NCBI RefSeq assembly: GCF_006345805.1
Contig: NC_043009.1
Location: 52,328,001 to 52,392,000, forward strand
Source of the DNA: Octopus sinensis
Lineage: Eukaryota
DNA length: 64,000 bases
Direction of reading: 5' to 3'
How positions within the stretch are numbered: the first letter of the stretch is position 1; every line of letters begins with the position of its first letter. Of this stretch, positions 15,778-37,520 are shown piece after piece. The translations under genes were made by a program, and so were the position numbers. Under the pieces are notes generated by a model. That model saw only the letters and a program-made list of their open reading frames with translations. It was not told the DNA's origin and did no database searches.

Positions 15778-16191
15778 GATGAAAAGCAAACTCGACCTCG
15801 GAGGAATTTGAGCTCAGAACGTAAAAGACAGACGAAATACCTATTTCTTTACTACCCACAAGGAGCTACACACAGAGGGGACAAACAAGGACAGACAATC
15901 GGATTATATCGACCCCAGTGCGTAACTGGTACTTATTTAATCGACCCCGAAAGGATGAAAGGCAAAGTCGACCTCAACGGAATTTGAGCTCAGAATGTAA
16001 AGACAGACGAAATACCTATGTCTTTACTACCCACAAGGGGCTACACACAGAGGGGACAAACGAGGACAGACAAACGGATTATATCGACCCCAGTGCGTAA
16101 CTGGTACTTACTTAATCGAACCCGAAAGGATGAAAGGTAAAGTCGACCTAGGCGGAACTTGAACTCAGAACGTAACGGCAGACGAAATACG
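15778..16191 (-). mobile_element. Head-to-tail array of headless SINE family A units, period 175 bp
   Basis: gacgaaatac recurs at 15831, 16006 and 16181; each unit is body plus tail of the 14192-14423 SINE. Confidence 0.9.
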
Positions 16192-16439
16192 AATTTCTTT
16201 ATTGCCCACCGGGGGCCAAACATAGATATGGACAGTACAACTGATGGGATCAGTGAATCGATATGATTTTACATAAATGTGACATCAAAAATAAAATACA
16301 ATACATAAACATCGAATGGAATACACAGTACAAAAACAATACAAATGAAGCGATGATCAAGTTACGCTCCGATCCCACAAGCCCCGATCTACCGCTGATA
16401 CCTTTTTATTTTTCCTTTTTTTTTTTTTTCCTCGTCTAT

Positions 16440-19400
16440 TCACACGGTTCCTTGCACGCACAACACTTGTGCAACATACTTCCATCTCTTTTGGAACGTA
16501 CACTCTGACAGACACTCTTCTCCAGCCACAGTTTCCTTTTCAAATGAAAAGGAAAAAAAGGATCGTAAATTGTCACCAGAGATAAAGTTGCCTGTCTTAA
16601 TTCCTTTTATCCTAGTATTCCATACAGCCTCTTTTGCTATTGCTACAACCGTGAGAAAACAATTCTTACCTCGTTCGTTAGAACTCCCGGTGGGTCAATT
16701 TTTATAATTGACTCAGTCGACAGCCGTACTCTTCTTCGCCGGACAACAGATGTTCAGCATAAGCCCACATTTCAGTTATCTCCGGACACTGAACAATAGC
16801 GTGAGGGACGGTTTCCCTGTCCCCACGCTCTTGGACAGGTCGGCGACTGACGTTTACCATGTCTTGCGAGCTTATCCCAAACGGGCAAGGCACCTCTGTA
16901 GCATTGCCAGGTTAAGGACTTTTGGAAGTTGTCCAACGTTCTCAACCCGAATGTACGATGAAACAAGCTGTCCAGTTGAATAAATCCGAGACCTAGAGTC
17001 GACCCCAGGCCATCGTCGCATTCAGACTCTACCAACCCACTATATAAAATCCGTGTGGAACCCCAACCGCTGGCGTTGCCCGAGCGCCGGAACAGCAAGA
17101 GGGCCTTACGGCACTCTTTATGCCACTCACTCAACCTCGGTCTACGAGAACACCAGGCTTCCTGTTCGCAAAAACTCTTGAACTCAGGGAACATTTGTCT
17201 GGCCAGCGGAGACCACACCCGTTCACTATCCAGGAGAATCCAGAGGTGCCTCAACCTCAACGCATGTCTGCGCATCATTAACCAAGGCATCCCTAAACCT
17301 CCATTTAAAGGCTTTTGACAGCAGACAGAGCGTTTCACAAGTGGCGACCTGCCCTTCCACAAAAAGCGAAAGAGCTGTCTCTCCAACCTGATCAACCACG
17401 AATCCGGACAGGGCACGACAGTCAGGCGGTAGGTAATGACCGATGCGATAAACACATTGGCCACTTCCGCCCTCCCTTTCAGGGATAGCCACCGCCAAGA
17501 CCAAGTCTTGACTACTGCAGCACCCTGCTCAATACCTCCGTCTAGTTCTTCTCTATCTGGAGGCTGGTCCAAACCAGACTCCCAGCAACTTAACCGGTCC
17601 CTCCGTCCAGCGCCTAACAACACTGTCTGAAGGCATCGACTTGCCAACCCAGGTGCCGAGCTGCAAGCCGACCGACTTTTCCGGGTTAATCTTTGCTCCT
17701 GCACTACCTCCTCGTAAGCCTCAATAGTCTTACCTACTTCACGTAGGCGTACCACTGTGGTTACACTGATAGTGATATCATCCGCGAAAGCCGTAACAAA
17801 CTCCTCTAGTCCTGGTTCTCTCGGGATGCCACTCAACCTTTGCAGTAATGGCTCGAGAGCCATCACATACAAAAGTGGTGAAAGCGGACATCCTTGACGA
17901 ACCGAGCGTCTGATGCAGAACGGCTTCGAAAGGAAACCGTTCACCCGAACTATCGAGTCAATGTTGTGGTACAAAGATAATAAACCACCTGAGGAAGCCA
18001 AGGCCCAGGCCAAACCGCGCAAGTACAGTCGCTAGGTATCGATGGTCAACCCTATCAAAAGCTTTAGACTGGTCCAAATGCACCAATGCCCCACCTTTGC
18101 CAGATTTATTACCAAACCTCTCTATGGTATATAGCGAATAAGATGGAGGGTATCCTGAATGGTTCTGCCTGGGATGGCACATGTCTGTGCCTCCCCGACT
18201 ATACCATTCGCGACACGCGCCAACCTTTTTGCTAGAACCTTGGCCAAAATCTTCACTTCTGCGTTTAACAGAGTGATGGGCCTGAAATTCTCTAGAACGT
18301 CCCCCTTGTCCGGGTCCTTTCTGACCAACGTCACTACTCCCCGGCGCACAGATCTGGGGATAAACCCATTCTGTTTCCAGTTCGCGTACACGTCAGTCAG
18401 TAGTTGCCCGAACAAGTCTGGCATACATTTATACAGCTCGTACGGAAGACCATCAAGTCCCGGTGACTTACCCGCTTTACAATCAGCCAAAGCCTCCATC
18501 ACCTCCTCAAGTGTGATTGGCCCTTCGCAAGACTCCGCATCCGACCCCGAGAGGCACGGCAGCCCGGTAAGAAAGTCCTCGAGGGCTCTCCCACCACCAG
18601 GACCGCCGTCACCCCCGAACAGCTGGGCGAAGTACTCCCGAAAGACCTCACACATTTTCTCGGGTTCGTTATCAAGACACCATTTTGATTCGTCAAAGAC
18701 CGAATAGAGGAACTATTTCCTTGCCGAGCTTCCACCACTCGGGCCCATCCAGCGGCTTTGATTCCTTCACTTCCCATTGCACGTAACTTAGCTCTGGTAA
18801 TACTTCCCATGTGGTGGGCTTCAAGATGCTGGTTTAACTCCAGTCTTTTCACCCTCGCTTGGTCTGTATTACCAGTCCTCCAGGCTTCTTCTAGTTCTTA
18901 ACTAGACCATCTCCTATTTTACGTCCCTTCTTAGCTAAACTTATGCTAAACCTAATAGACTCATATTTGATGGCTCTTTTAGGGCGTACCACCATTTGTT
19001 ATTAATGATGGTACCTGTTAATGCCCTCTGTATTAACATCTTGATCCGCTTTCTGTACTCCTCAATCGCCAAAAGGGACGTATTGAGTTTCCAGTAGCCA
19101 GATCCCTGTCTATGCAACTTATCTACCGTCAGTTTACAGGTAACCATCTTGTGGTCACTGTAGCTGACTAGAAAAAACTGTGGACACTCAACTATGGACT
19201 TATCTTTTTCTCTAATTAAAATCCTATCTAGATATGTTCTGGTAGACCCGTCACTATTTGACCACGTCCACTGTGGAGTGTTCGGGTGCTCCAACCTATA
19301 TGGATCTGCTAGCTGAAATTGACTTAGCAGATCCCGAAAGCCTGTGTTACATTTTCTGTTCATGTTCGAGTTTGAGCCAACATAATCTGTGTGTGCTGCA

Positions 19401-19835
19401 CATATGTATTAGAGTCTCCTAACACTACTAGTGAATGCGACGTGGCTAGGAACTTTCCTAGGCCACGAAAATATTCAGTTTGCGGGCCAATAATGTTTGT
19501 GCATAAATAGCGACCAGCCTGATTGTCTTGCCACAACTGAATGTCAAATCGAGAACGACCAGCCTGCCTTCTGGGTCAGAAAAAACCAACTTTTTCTCGG
19601 CTACCCGGTTTCTTTTTAGTAGGACCAACACCCCACCCCCACCTCCCGCCCGACTCGGAGAAACGTATTTCTCGTAGCCGTTCAGGAGGGGGAGCAGATC
19701 TCTTGGCCCCTTCACCCGGGTTTCCGTTGCAACAATTACATCCAAATTTCTCGACCTGATGTCATTCAGAAAGCGTCCTTGCTTCCAGCTTGACAACAGG
19801 CCATGAACATTTAAACAACCAATGTGAATAGCCAT
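16440..19835 (-). pseudogene. LINE ORF2: APE endonuclease, reverse transcriptase and C-terminal Cys/His domain (frameshifted in this sequence)
   Basis: IGCLNVHGL, VIVATET, LVAIYA, TYLDRIL, SDHKMV, GYWKLN (endonuclease). KSPGLDGLPYELY, FRPITLLNAEVKILAK, LDQSKAFDRVDH, VRQGCPLSPLLY, AFADD (RT). CPR...ETVPHAIVQC (C-terminal). Split over several frames. Confidence 0.92.
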
Positions 19836-19849
19836 CACTTACCTGTTTA

Positions 19850-21364
19850 ATTAGGATTGTCCGGTGGAGGGGGACCCTCCACCTTTTTTTTATCCAGGGT
19901 CGGAGGTGGACGGTCTTGGGAAATAGATTTGTCAAAATCCCGTCTCACCACCGACACAGAATTATCAGGTGGAGGGGGAATCTCCACCTTTTCCTTTTCT
20001 CGCGGGATCGGAGCTGGTAATCCATGAAATATCGACTTGTTAAAATCTAATCTCAATGAAGATACAGTCTTTCTGTACTTATTTTGTAGAATTCTATAAG
20101 TATTTGAGACTTCATATATGTCGTAATTGATAAATTCCTCTGAAAGGTATCAATTTTTTTACAGTCTTTATGAGTGAATGTCTCTCATGAGCTCAGTATC
20201 TTTAGTGTATACGGCTATTATGCCTTTTTCTTCTTTTTCTCTCTGGCAGTCTTTTTTGGTCGTTGTTCTGTAGTAGTCGCCGCTCTCGGCTGGTTGCTGG
20301 TTGTATTTTTCTTTTGTTTGTTGTTTTTCTCATCTGTTTCTTCTTTATCTTCTTCCTCTTTGTCTTTTTCTCCTCTTACTCCTCTTCTTCATTTTCCTTG
20401 CAGTTCCTTCGAATGTGGCCTAATTGACCACATAAAAAACATCGAGGTTTTCGGCCCTCAACAAATACCACGAGGTTCTCCTCCCCTACCTCAATTGTCT
20501 CAGGAATTGTTTGAATTATTTTAGGGTCCGCTTGAATGAGAAGATTAATTGTTTTACCATCCCAGCGTGGGTTTTCCGTAGCGGTATCCTGGAGGAGAGT
20601 AATTTTTTCTACCTCTTTGATTAGGACTGCCGCCAACAACCACATAGGTTCGACCTCTGGCGGGACCCTTGTAATTTTTATTCGCGACGTCCTCATCCCC
20701 ATATAATAGGGTATTAACTCCACGTCGTTCGTTTTCAACGTTTCCACTGAGTTCTTGTGTGTCTATTTTTTATTGGTGAACCTTACTTCCACCGTTCCGA
20801 ATTTTTTCCTCTTCTCAGAAATACTACGTCACCCAATATTGGCTTCAAGCACTTTTCTATTTTCTCTTCTGACATTCTTTCAATTTTTCTTTTTGTAGAC
20901 AATATGTTTTGAAATTATTGTTTTTTGCTTTTCTTCCTGTAATAACTTTTGCGGAGGTTCAATTTTCACACTGTTGTCATTTATTTCCATCATTTTGCTG
21001 TATTTCATAATTTCGCTTTTATTCGTCGACAGTATCTGGGGTCCACCCCCAGCAGCCAACGCAAAACTTTTTTTTTTCCATTTTTTGGTTCTATCTGGAT
21101 GCTAGGCACATCAATTATTCTCTTCGACACAATGCCTTTGTTCTCTGGCAAAGTCGGAAACTCTTCTGGTGAAAGCTCTGACGAGCTCTCAGACACCATC
21201 TCCAAAAATATCAAATATATTATCCTCTCTGCTATTCCTTCTTGTAGCGGGGGAAACCCTATTTCCTTGTCTGTAGTTGGCTCCTCGCCGGACATGTATT
21301 TCCTCCTCTCAACAGGAGAAACAAGTATTTCTGCTCCAACGGTAGGCTCCATGCTAGACGACAT
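19850..21364 (-). pseudogene. LINE ORF1, gag-like protein with CCHC zinc knuckle (frameshifted)
   Basis: ATG at 21364; VFVEGRKPRCFLCGQLGHIRRNC (CX2CX4HX4C), typical of Tx1-type ORF1; charged then Pro-rich C-terminal region. End point uncertain. Confidence 0.8.
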
Positions 21365-21533
21365 TCTTCCCCCCAAAGGGGGAATGAACAACGCGTGCTA
21401 CCACAAGCACTAAGTGTTTTCAATTGAAAACTCCAACAGTTAAGTTATTCAACAGTTTAACAAGAAACAACAGTTGTTAACAATATTAACACCACGAAAC
21501 AGCAATTCTTACTTCACGAACACATGTGCGGCT

Positions 21534-21591
21534 GACGAAATACGGCTACGCATTTCGCCCGGCGTGCTAACGTTTCTGCCAGCTCGCCGCC
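21534..21591 (-). mobile_element. 5' head (A-box part) of the SINE interrupted by the Tx1 element
   Basis: Reverse complement ggcggcgagctggcagaaacgttagcacgccgggcgaaatgcgtagccgtatttcgtc matches 14192-14249. Confidence 0.9.
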
Positions 21592-25030: not shown

Positions 25031-25182
25031 GGCGTAATGGCCTAGTGGTTAGGGCAGCGGACTCGCGGTCGTAGGATCGCGGTTTCGATATCCCAGACCG
25101 GGCGTTGTGAGTGTTTATTGAGCGAAAACACCTAAAATCTCCACGAGGCTCCGGCAGGGGGTCATGATCCCTGCTGTACTCT
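25031..25182 (+). mobile_element. tRNA-derived SINE family C, 5' part
   Basis: A box tggcctagtgg, B-box-like ggtttcgatatccc; matches 37338-37520 and 40338-40715. Confidence 0.85.
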
Positions 25183-25609
25183 TTTATATATGCACACATA
25201 GATATATACGTAACATAAGATATATATATTATATATATTAGGTCACTTTAGTTCATATGTGTCACCCAGTTTTTTTTGTTCAAATTTACGTACAACTGAA
25301 CAAAACATCCAATTCAAGGATGTCTCGCAATTGCTATAAGACTATAGACACGCTATGATATTCATATCACTTTACACACAATTCTATGCTTGTGTAATTT
25401 ATTTACTTACTCTAACAGTTTATATTTTTCCCAGTTTATATTTTCTCCCAAAACATTCAGTTATTACACGCTATCATTTGCTATAGTAATAAAGTTTTGC
25501 TATATGCTTCTCTTATACAACACTCAATGTTTTATTCTTTCTAATGCTCCGATGTAACAGTTTGTAAAGTTTCCTTTTACAAATAAATAAAATGTATCAC
25601 TCTACCTAA

Positions 25610-26423: not shown

Positions 26424-26855
26424 CTTTACTCTTTTACTCTTTTACTTGTTTCAGTCATTTGACTGCGGCCATGCTGGAGCACCGCCTTAAGTGGAGCAAA
26501 TCGACCACGGGACTTATTCTTTGTAAGCCCAGTACTTATTCTATCGGTCTCTTTTGCCGAACCGCTAAGTGACGGGGACGTAAACACACCAGCATCGGTT
26601 GTCAAGCAATGCTAGGGGGACAAACACAGACACACAAACCCACAAACACACAAACCCACAAACACACATATATATATATATATACATATATACGACAGGC
26701 TTCTTTCAGTTTCCGTCTACCAAATCCACTCACAAGGCATTGGTTGGCCCGGGGCTATAGTAGAAGAGACTTGCCCAAGATGCCACGCAGTGGGACTGAA
26801 CCCGGAACCATGTGGTTGGTTAGCAAGCTACTTACCACACAGCCACTCCTGCACC
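26424..26855 (-). mobile_element. SINE family B, full length
   Basis: Reverse-strand homolog of 13184-13554 and 52410-52838. Confidence 0.88.
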
Positions 26856-35980: not shown

Positions 35981-36048
35981 GAAGAAGAAGAGAAGAAGAA
36001 GAAGAAGAAGAAGAAGAAGAAGAAGAAGAAGAAGAAGAATGATAATAA

Positions 36049-36260
36049 TCTTTTCTACTGGAAGCACAAGGCCTCAAATTTGGAGGAATCGATTAAGTCG
36101 ATTACATCGACCCCAGTGTGTAACAGGTACTAATTTCATCGAACCCGAAATGATGAAAGGCAAAGTCAACCTCAGCGGAATTTGAACTCAGAACGTAACG
36201 CAGACGAAATACCGCTAAGTATTTTGCCCCGCGTACTAACGATTCTGCCAGCTCACCGCC
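36049..36260 (-). mobile_element. SINE family A, full length, alternative tail, in TAA-repeat context
   Basis: Head and body match 14192-14360; tail (plus strand tcttttctactggaagcacaaggcctcaaatttgg) is unrelated to the Tx1-like tail; target motif unoccupied at 36203-36212. Confidence 0.85.
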
Positions 36261-36299: not shown

Positions 36300-36565
36300 C
36301 AGACGCACAATTTCCAATGGAGCAGTTTCGTTACCTAATCATTTCACCATAACTTGTAGTGGTTTTGGACAAGTCTAAAGTTTTCGTTCGTTATATGTGC
36401 AATGGTTTCATCCACTCTATTGCAGATCTGGTACAGCCGAGACACTTGCCCATTCTTAAGGTCGATCCTCAAGTACGTGACCAAAGCTTGGTCATGAGCT
36501 GTCAGTATAGTGCTCCTGATTTCTTTTGTTAATGTTTCTTTCACCAGGCAATACAACCTGTGATA
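36300..36565 (-). mobile_element. R4/Dong-type LINE fragment (zinc-finger region)
   Basis: TILTAHDQALVT...ICNRVDETIAHIT...LVQNHYK matches AAQDQALxT...CRxC...ETIxHI...LAQxxYK; flanked by (TAA)n. Confidence 0.65.
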
Positions 36566-36732: not shown

Positions 36733-37337
36733 TATAACAACAACAACAACAACGACGACGACGATGACAGGACGAAGAAGAAGAAGAAGAAGAATATATG
36801 CTGGGCATGATTGCTTGATGGTCTCGAAGACTGAGGCCATCCCAGTGTTATACTCTGTGGTTGTCTGCCGTAGCGAGTATTTCGCTCCCTCATACAAATA
36901 TTAAAGAAGGTGACAATACCAGGGCTCTCAGAAAATCGGAGTTCTATGGATATTAGCAACCCATTTTGTTATGGGGGGGGGGGGCGAAAAGTCGAAAGGT
37001 TACAAATGTGAACAGAAGGTGATGAGAGATCCTGTTTTAACTACTCGTTTAATACCAGTCTGAAGCCTGGGTAATTTGAAAGGTTCTCCGACCTCATTTC
37101 CATGCCGAACGGCAAGGAACAAAGACTAATTTTTTAGACGAGATGGTAAGTCTAAGGAACAACAAGGCATTTAAGAGCCTTCTGTCTCAGTAACTCTAAC
37201 AGAAAATAGGAAAGCTTAAACGACAAATACTGTGCGTGCCACAACAGCAGTAGAAGCAGCAGGTTTGGCAACAAGCTACATTAACAGCATCGGGACCAAG
37301 GCTAACTATAGTAACAACAGCAGCGGTGGAGGATCAA

Positions 37338-37520
37338 TGACCCAGTGGTTAGAGCAGGGACTCGAGGTCGTAAAAACGCGGTTTAGATTCCCAGACCAGG
37401 CGTTGTGAGTGTTTATTGAGCAAAAACACATAAGCTCCACGAGGCTCCGGCGGGAGTGGGGTTGAAACCCGCTGTACTCTTTCACCGCAACTTTATCTCG
37501 CTCTTTCTTCCTACTTCTGC
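37338..37520 (+). mobile_element. SINE family C, 5' part
   Basis: Homologous to 25031-25182. Confidence 0.8.

Follow-up and report, generated by a model that had tools for sequence, protein, structure and literature searches.

Results

The locus occupies the minus strand of the window, by which we mean the whole 64,000-nucleotide stretch of Octopus sinensis DNA that was analysed. Read along that strand, it begins with the head of a host SINE (21529..21591), which contains an A-box-like part, equals bases 1-63 of a solo copy elsewhere in the window and is of the C type, GCGTAGCC. The end of this head (21544-21529) is the upstream copy of a 16-bp target, and directly behind it lies a full-length, 5.3-kb Tx1-like LINE without a terminal poly(A) (16192..21528). 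Its ORF1 with a zinc knuckle (about 21400-20376) and its ORF2 with APE, RT and zinc finger (about 19840-16440) are both broken by frameshifts and stops. The downstream copy of the target, CGTATTTCGTCTGCCG (16176..16191), has one mismatch to the upstream copy and forms the start of an array of three units. Unit 1 (16017..16191) comprises a B-box-like part, the body and a T-variant of the Tx1-type tail, and is marked by a 9-bp deletion and G206. Unit 2 (15842..16016) is a headless mosaic, with a 5' part like that of unit 3 and a 3' part like that of unit 1, and unit 3 (15778..15841) is a headless 64-bp stub that has lost its tail and is followed by microsatellites. Two solo copies lie apart from the array: a full-length SINE with a Tx1-type tail on the plus strand (14192..14423), which serves as the reference copy, and a minus-strand SINE (36045..36260) with the same head and body and an alternative (B3) tail that ends in ATT repeats. 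Throughout, SINE positions refer to a consensus trimmed to begin AAGGCGG, in which the junction falls at base 50, corresponding to base 48 of the solo SINE at 14192.

On the minus strand, the LINE 3' joint at 16191 reads ...GGGCAATAAAGAAATT followed by CGTATTTCGTC, the end of unit 1 and start of unit 2 read ...GTAGTAAAGACATA followed by GGTATTTCGTC, and the end of unit 2 and start of unit 3 read ...GTAGTAAAGAAATA followed by GGTATTTCGTC. Every joint in the window thus consists of a tail, a G or C, and GTATTTCGTC. TRF describes the array with a period of 175, 2.5 copies and 89% matches. The window units align with the solo SINE (14192-14423) from solo base 48/49 onward, and therefore lack the A-box-like part and retain the B-box-like part, as labelled by the usual box consensus. 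Of 174 aligned bases, 15 differ between units 1 and 2. Both units are shorter than the usual array unit of 184 bp, owing to a 9-bp deletion that they have in common. An earlier, sequence-only reading had described them as headless units differing by several substitutions, and in this it was accurate. It had also supposed one head with several modules; the head does exist, but is found 5.3 kb upstream (21591-21529), beyond the LINE, and together with unit 1 it makes up one whole SINE with the LINE in between. The stub, unit 3, is likely the remnant of the original host SINE.

At the level of the reads, four sequencing runs yielded pile-ups of repeats on both strands and did not assemble into a contig across the locus. 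The bare target 10-mer, with at most one mismatch, occurs 9 times in the window where 3.6 are expected, a marginal excess that was equalled in 3 of 100 shuffles. The target forms the right arm of an inverted repeat (GAAATGC...GTATTTC, window 14228-14245), whose left arm appears to be re-formed by the tail end GAAATA at the junctions at 16010-16023 and 15835-15848.

The window holds several further repeats. A 5.6-kb ATC-type microsatellite array (55807-61447) is found near a 1-kb TAT array (54694-55766), a local duplication of about 1 kb joins 10840-11712 and 11891-12758 at 99% identity, and inverted and direct repeats of 165 and 212 bp, at 95-98% identity, lie within 53143-53980. One dispersed SINE-like family is represented at 13185-13551, 26433-26855, 52430-52838, 48231-48707 and 49241-49392, and another at 25036-25184, 37336-37519 and 40530-40716. 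Beside the B-tailed SINE, the minus strand of 36300-36520 resembles the end of another LINE, possibly an RTE-like one.

Unbroken natural copies of the LINE family carry an ORF1 with a zinc knuckle (L163) and an ORF2 of 1134 aa with APE, RT and a C-terminal zinc finger (L162), as identified with Pfam. The broken ORF pieces of the window copy, which is 98-99% identical to most other copies examined, also show domain matches. The best solved relative of ORF2 is human L1 ORF2 (E 2e-64), there is a 35% match, over 420 aa, to a protein named Transposon TX1, and the nearest named protein is one of Argonauta, at 62%. From these protein comparisons the LINE is assigned to the L1 group, as a Tx1-like member.

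The 3' 25-mer of the LINE occurs 140 times in the genome. Fifty of these loci were examined, one of which (L079) is a SINE, leaving 49 LINE ends outside the window. SINE base 50 directly adjoins 48 of the 49; the lone exception (L177) is a LINE end at a GATATT site. The earlier claim that the unit junctions coincide with the LINE target is thereby borne out, down to one fixed base. The tail of the SINE at L079 matches the last 34 bases of the LINE exactly, which suggests a fresh tail capture.

For the 5' end, 40 LINE loci were fetched at 8 kb, 20 of which had been preselected for long upstream homology. The 5' end is present at 33 of the 40, including 13 among the 20 unselected loci. With the window copy included, a SINE head precedes 33 of the 34 LINE 5' ends and a tail junction the remaining one, all in the same register. 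A pattern search for the LINE 5' junction matched the window copy alone, owing to a private base of that copy. At all 32 typed loci, the LINE 3' junction base is the same as base 50 of the upstream head (20 C, 12 G), and the C or G state is unclustered on the LINE tree (8 changes against a shuffled mean of 9.4, with 105 of 500 shuffles as low), a tree whose bootstrap had not settled. The matching junction base and the lack of clustering argue that the LINE insertions occurred in situ. Two other possibilities were rejected: that SINE heads are carried along by the LINE, as head type does not cluster on the LINE tree, and that the arrays are LINE 3' transductions, as the duplication lies immediately behind the LINE and agrees with the head of the host. 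Between the two target copies there are no mismatches at bases 50-56 and few at 57-62, with 13, 10 and 6 of 34 at bases 63, 64 and 65, respectively, and the LINE target duplication measures up to 16 bp. Since the first bases of the LINE itself imitate the target, its 5' end was likely joined by annealing. Among 40 LINE ends at the SINE site, 22 have C and 18 have G junctions, and among the identities listed all six LINE copies with 86-93% identity are located at G.

The SINE is short, non-coding and dispersed; its copies have target duplications and end in a LINE-like tail that is 79% identical to the end of the window-family LINE over 34 bp and 78-86% identical to sister LINE-type ends over 42-48 bp. 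A search for the tRNA identity of the head with ARAGORN and Rfam, the latter at the gathering threshold and also at E values up to 5, gave no match. Folding returned a long hairpin across the target in the head (z = -1.2) and z of about 0 to 0.7 for the tails, values that leave a structure unsupported. Across the 2.72-Gb genome, the 23-mer of the Tx1-type (A) tail occurs 57,922 times exactly, and the exact junction 29-mer of a T-variant tail and the target 19,854 times, compared to 0 for the reversed control. A second T-variant tail junction adds 5,406 exact occurrences and the C-variant tails 1,648. The T-tail junction with C in place of G at base 50 was found 159 times, so that SINE junctions are 99% G.

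A content-blind sample of 1 Mb, composed of one hundred 10-kb stretches at round coordinates on C1-C22, contains 80 A tails. Of these, 27 run into base 50, three into base 17 and one into a full head, and the remaining 49 are followed by other DNA. The sample also contains 98 alternative (B) tails, one of which was scored as running into the target, which was no true junction: three B-junction candidates comprise two A tails with internal deletions and one that lies about 100 bp off. Genome-wide, the B2 tail (2,677 occurrences) has the target within 12 bases five times, and in register 0 times. The expectation that such junctions be confined to the Tx1-type tail is thus upheld. Extrapolated, 27 junctions per Mb correspond to roughly 70,000 in the genome. 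Arrays of at least two units make up 20 of 59 A-bearing loci and are about equally common after LINEs (18 of 46), a second reason to reject 3' transduction by the LINE.

That the junctions should always fall at base 50 is, by contrast, too strong a claim: 49 of the 80 tails lie outside any SINE, and a second insertion site at SINE base 17 (AGAAACGTTAGC), within the A-box-like part, accounts for 1,750 exact junctions (e.g. L008, L010, L012 and L030). Among the matches listed for this second site, 89 of 100 have a C-variant tail. Duplications of 8-20 bp flank 27 of 54 solo SINE copies, starting mostly with GGTAT, GATAT or TATA at T tails and with AGAAA or TATA at C tails. T-variant tails outside SINEs are mostly at GGTAT-like sites, with duplications of 9-19 bp. 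Of the typed solo heads, 18 of 45 are of the C type. In the 1-Mb sample, 18 of the 98 B tails have another SINE head at most 110 bp downstream, perhaps reflecting insertion into the ATT tails.

To describe the arrays we used 85 clean ones, defined by the presence of a head and by joints that all lie at base 50. These were mostly junction-selected from the first 27 Mb of C1 and omit arrays after a LINE tail (through de-duplication), nested loci and C-junction loci. They include 55 dimers and 20 trimers, and the longest has 9 parsed units. The term satellite, as used in the sequence-only reading, does not suit such short arrays, of which only some long ones are homogeneous. In 26 of the 85, the terminal body is B-tailed and carries the B alleles at 143, 146 and 159, the hosts being B2 in 21 cases, B3 in three and B1 in two; duplication of a single element is therefore insufficient. 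Moreover, a T tail is found in 133 of 136 non-terminal units compared to 27 of 46 terminal A units, and a C tail in 19 of 46 terminal A units compared to 2 of 136 inner units. Heads of the C type occur in 3 of 22 typed A+B arrays and in 16 of 31 solo copies with a T tail (P = 0.008), and the A+B arrays retain the G head of the host type.

Rare variants common to both units of A+A dimers peak at bases 50-65 (10/28, every shared site being counted twice), with 0.07-0.15 elsewhere and 0.01-0.02 in the control; between different arrays, 48 of 3438 are in common. The age gradient that had been proposed along the arrays is also seen, in that divergence is lower in the first unit than in the last at 35 of 46 arrays (2.6% compared to 3.7%, P = 0.001), a trend that is weaker for T-tailed terminal units alone (n = 27, P = 0.09).

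Nested full-length copies, in which a head and target are followed by a full SINE, gave 149 exact matches, a number whose ratio to the 19,854 headless junctions is rough since the two patterns differ in length. Thirty of these matches were fetched, of which six lie in tandem-head runs; among the other 24 loci, the host resumes after the insert at 15. Seven of the 30 matches listed follow a tail junction. Hosts deviate from the A consensus at bases 61-62 in 10 of the 15 nested cases compared to 20 of 136 headless junctions (P = 4e-5), and over 61-65 in 11 of 15 compared to 62 of 136 (P = 0.056). An excess at 61-62 in nested hosts is what the annealing of an upstream overhang to the cDNA predicts. 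With the chimeric arrays, the sharing within a 16-bp window, the age gradient and this mismatch effect, site-specific self-insertion with a homologous 5' joint, as first proposed from this one locus, is well supported.

Not all units were added in this way. In the window, the 5' part of unit 2 carries the unit 3 alleles T63, T65 and C78, the last of which is found in 10 of 753 units, and its 3' part carries the unit 1 alleles, the 9-bp deletion and G206, which occur together in 1 of 470. The switch point lies between consensus bases 79 and 158. Such a mosaic is what an out-of-register exchange within a dimer of units 1 and 3 would be expected to produce, and judging from these alleles unit 2 likely arose by DNA duplication. 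Elsewhere, mosaic switch points lie at 100-120 (L271) and 104-163 (L270). Related neighbours are seen in 13 of 30 trimers (control 168/2000), and 11 of the 30 have no rare allele in common past the duplication window. Neighbours share rare alleles in 8 of 10 arrays of at least four units, the exceptions being L006 and L020; neighbour divergence amounts to 0-5% in L264, L266 and L254, and to 10-13% in L006 and L020. The proposal that such arrays are built by retrotransposition rather than unequal crossover is therefore contradicted in its second half. Of the dimers, 9 of 55 share at least two rare alleles beyond the duplication window (control 75/3000) and 33 of 55 share none beyond base 66 (control 2440/3000); some dimers, as their alleles indicate, are dependent and not separate insertions.

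Could retrotransposition nonetheless have added every unit, the middle one of the window included, with the transcript of a locus reinserting at its own adjacent junction? A mosaic unit can also be produced in this manner, and with the same order of parts as by crossover. Junctions do serve as targets, both for the seven nested matches mentioned above and for one of the 34 LINE 5' ends, and the 11 trimers and the two 4-mers (L006 and L020) that share no rare alleles beyond the duplication window fit this explanation as well. However, the switch points, at the window locus as at L271 and L270, lie far past base 65, which is why crossover is favoured over self-templated reinsertion. Furthermore, the near-identical runs of 4-7 units (L254, L266 and L264) and the five identical 65-bp heads of L202-L206 are more simply explained as DNA duplications, with assembly error being possible for both. 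We therefore consider a purely retrotranspositional origin unlikely. The head run just mentioned (C1:195358956-195359245) is one of several tandem runs of the 65-66-bp SINE head with its target, along with C7:15322785-15323079 and C18:40399010-40399169, and consists of one whole SINE preceded by five head-only copies that are all of equal identity. Such head runs reflect either recent DNA duplication or an assembly artefact.

Somewhat less probable still is that in-situ self-insertion is rare, and that a few multimeric master elements, made by Pol III read-through, were retrotransposed whole. A recognisable duplication does surround the entire array in 27 of 46 A+A arrays, and among the nested matches listed one doubled-head form recurs at many loci. 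In addition, the head is of the C type and the junctions are G in 12 of 39 typed A+A arrays; the overhang alone leaves this combination unexplained, and a longer strand exchange or movement of the whole array is needed. An outer duplication, however, is equally predicted by the insertion of the host itself, and master elements do not account for hosts with three different B tails, for rare variants that are common within arrays in the 16-bp window and hardly across arrays, or for first units that are younger than the last at the same locus, while nested copies with private duplications amount to direct insertion. That all arrays are DNA-level duplications of solo SINEs, through microhomology between the internal GGTATT and a GGTATT-like flank behind the tail, is very improbable and largely refuted by the A+B chimeras: T-tail solos often adjoin GGTAT-like flanks, which would supply the microhomology, and long arrays are homogeneous, but a B-tailed terminal body has no Tx1-type tail to copy, C tails are concentrated in terminal A units, most dimers share no rare allele beyond base 66, and LINEs and full-length SINEs are inserted at the same base with duplications.

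Discussion

In this study, we describe an array that is probably one locus of a genome-wide self-targeting SINE system, seeded by retrotransposition and with its middle unit added by DNA duplication. More generally, retrotransposition likely seeds the arrays and DNA duplication often extends the longer ones, that of the window included. As the junctions indicate, the Tx1-like LINE family inserts at SINE base 50, duplicating up to 16 bp, and T-variant SINE tails are joined at the same base. How, then, would a headless unit come about? The endonuclease of a Tx1-family element would nick the bottom strand at base 50, its RT would copy the SINE RNA starting from the tail, and the top strand would be cut about 13-16 bases downstream. 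Because the cDNA holds the same 16-bp stretch, the upstream overhang would anneal to it and prime the second strand, so that the head of the incoming copy is lost and the new unit is headless. The A-box of the host and the B-box of the incoming copy would together restore a complete promoter and target. Where the host has a mismatch near the end of the overhang, annealing would fail and a full-length copy with a plain duplication would be left. Adjacent units could subsequently give rise to extra ones through out-of-register crossover or slippage. At the window locus, unit 1 would have inserted into the host, now unit 3, followed by the duplication that gave unit 2 and the insertion of the LINE at the head-proximal site, these two in either order. 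Less in line with this model, only 4 of 16 hosts with T65 in A+B arrays have passed this base to the upstream copy. An RNA-templated G at the junctions found no clear support in the upstream and downstream duplication copies, which mostly start alike.

The window LINE family itself is probably a relative of the driver and not the driver. SINE junctions are almost exclusively G while young LINEs take both C and G, which is a mismatch for such a role, and the LINE tail resembles the C-variant SINE tail, whose preferred site is the second one at base 17. The T-tail wave was likely driven by an older, G-specific relative. A search of about 2 Mb of DNA for the exact partner LINE of the T tail found none, and yielded sister families that have other targets. 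Related tails are also present on the LINE-type ends at L231, L246, L283, L350, L260 and L237, four of these ends having an ORF2 at 40-64% identity; those at L231, L246 and L283 lie at TATC repeats, and those at L350 and L260 elsewhere. At L184 (minus strand, 1-1160), an ORF1-like element with a SINE-like tail and no ORF2 match is joined to SINE base 17 and closely precedes a full LINE at base 50; it is possibly an ORF1-only element. More speculatively, and with rather little confidence on our part, a target race may be taking place on the SINE. As its own best landing site, whose promoter and target are rebuilt with each landing, it would have accumulated its roughly 70,000 junctions, which recombination turns into proto-satellites; heads changed from G50 to C would escape the older enzyme, and the youngest LINE lineage would have widened its target to C.

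MetaSINEs are marked by a 66-bp Meta domain behind the head, which the central part of the octopus SINE presumably resembles. By layout alone, the SINE may be like the MetaSINEs and the octopus OK, OR1 and OR2 SINEs, which, in the accessible part of the source, combine a tRNA-like head and a common central domain with swappable LINE-linked 3' tails (PMC4824008); further context on SINE superfamilies is given in PMC4758252, likewise seen in part. A closer parallel in behaviour is offered by the crocodilian SINEU-3 and Tx1-Mar LINEs, for which the accessible text describes a common target preference with two favoured places in a common repeat, as well as tandem copies that sandwich a duplication and are interpreted as sequential insertions (PMC4494074). 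As in the octopus, where the LINE is Tx1-like, a SINE shares its target with Tx1-clade LINEs and inserts in tandem. The target of SINEU-3, however, is an unrelated DNA transposon (Mariner-N4), so that tandem copies are whole SINEs, whereas the octopus SINE targets its own head, so that each unit added lacks a head and restores the target.

In Drosophila, according to the portion of PMC2718515 available to us, R1 forms tandem arrays by repeated insertion into a regenerated 14-bp duplication, and annealing of the cDNA to the upstream target gives R1 and R2 precise 5' junctions. R1 and R2 differ in being autonomous LINEs of 28S rDNA, with homology that derives from co-transcribed flank, whereas the octopus SINE is its own target. 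Tandem repeats of SINE parts are also found in squamates and bivalves. For the SINE-derived satellites of squamates, the accessible text favours mainly unequal recombination and mentions same-locus insertion briefly (PMC10702118); the tandem SINEs of bivalves are likewise attributed mainly to unequal recombination, and have one complete head followed by head-truncated units, with longer arrays being more uniform (PMC11481361, in part). In contrast to the octopus arrays, no partner LINE target is described at the squamate and bivalve junctions in these partial sources, and the inner units of bivalves lack the tail end. The repeat annotation of Octopus vulgaris reports active L1-Tx1 families, and gives no targets in the part available (PMC13282606). 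Our literature search, for which Repbase, Dfam and most subscription papers were beyond reach, found no self-targeting SINE system of like kind, and the SINE family may already be in Repbase or Dfam. The system is real and genome-wide, and belongs among the target-sharing Tx1/SINE systems; it is not a new class of element.

Nothing in the arrays suggests a host function. For repeat annotation, they call for the caution that dimers of this kind are not separate SINE families. The joining of the 5' end is a poorly understood step in the insertion of non-LTR elements, of which tens of thousands of natural events are recorded here, and through the mismatch effect at bases 61-62 the annealing model can be tested directly. 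Above all, the arrays show in countable form how a dispersed repeat can become tandem DNA, in that targeted self-insertion makes the first dimer and recombination continues from there.
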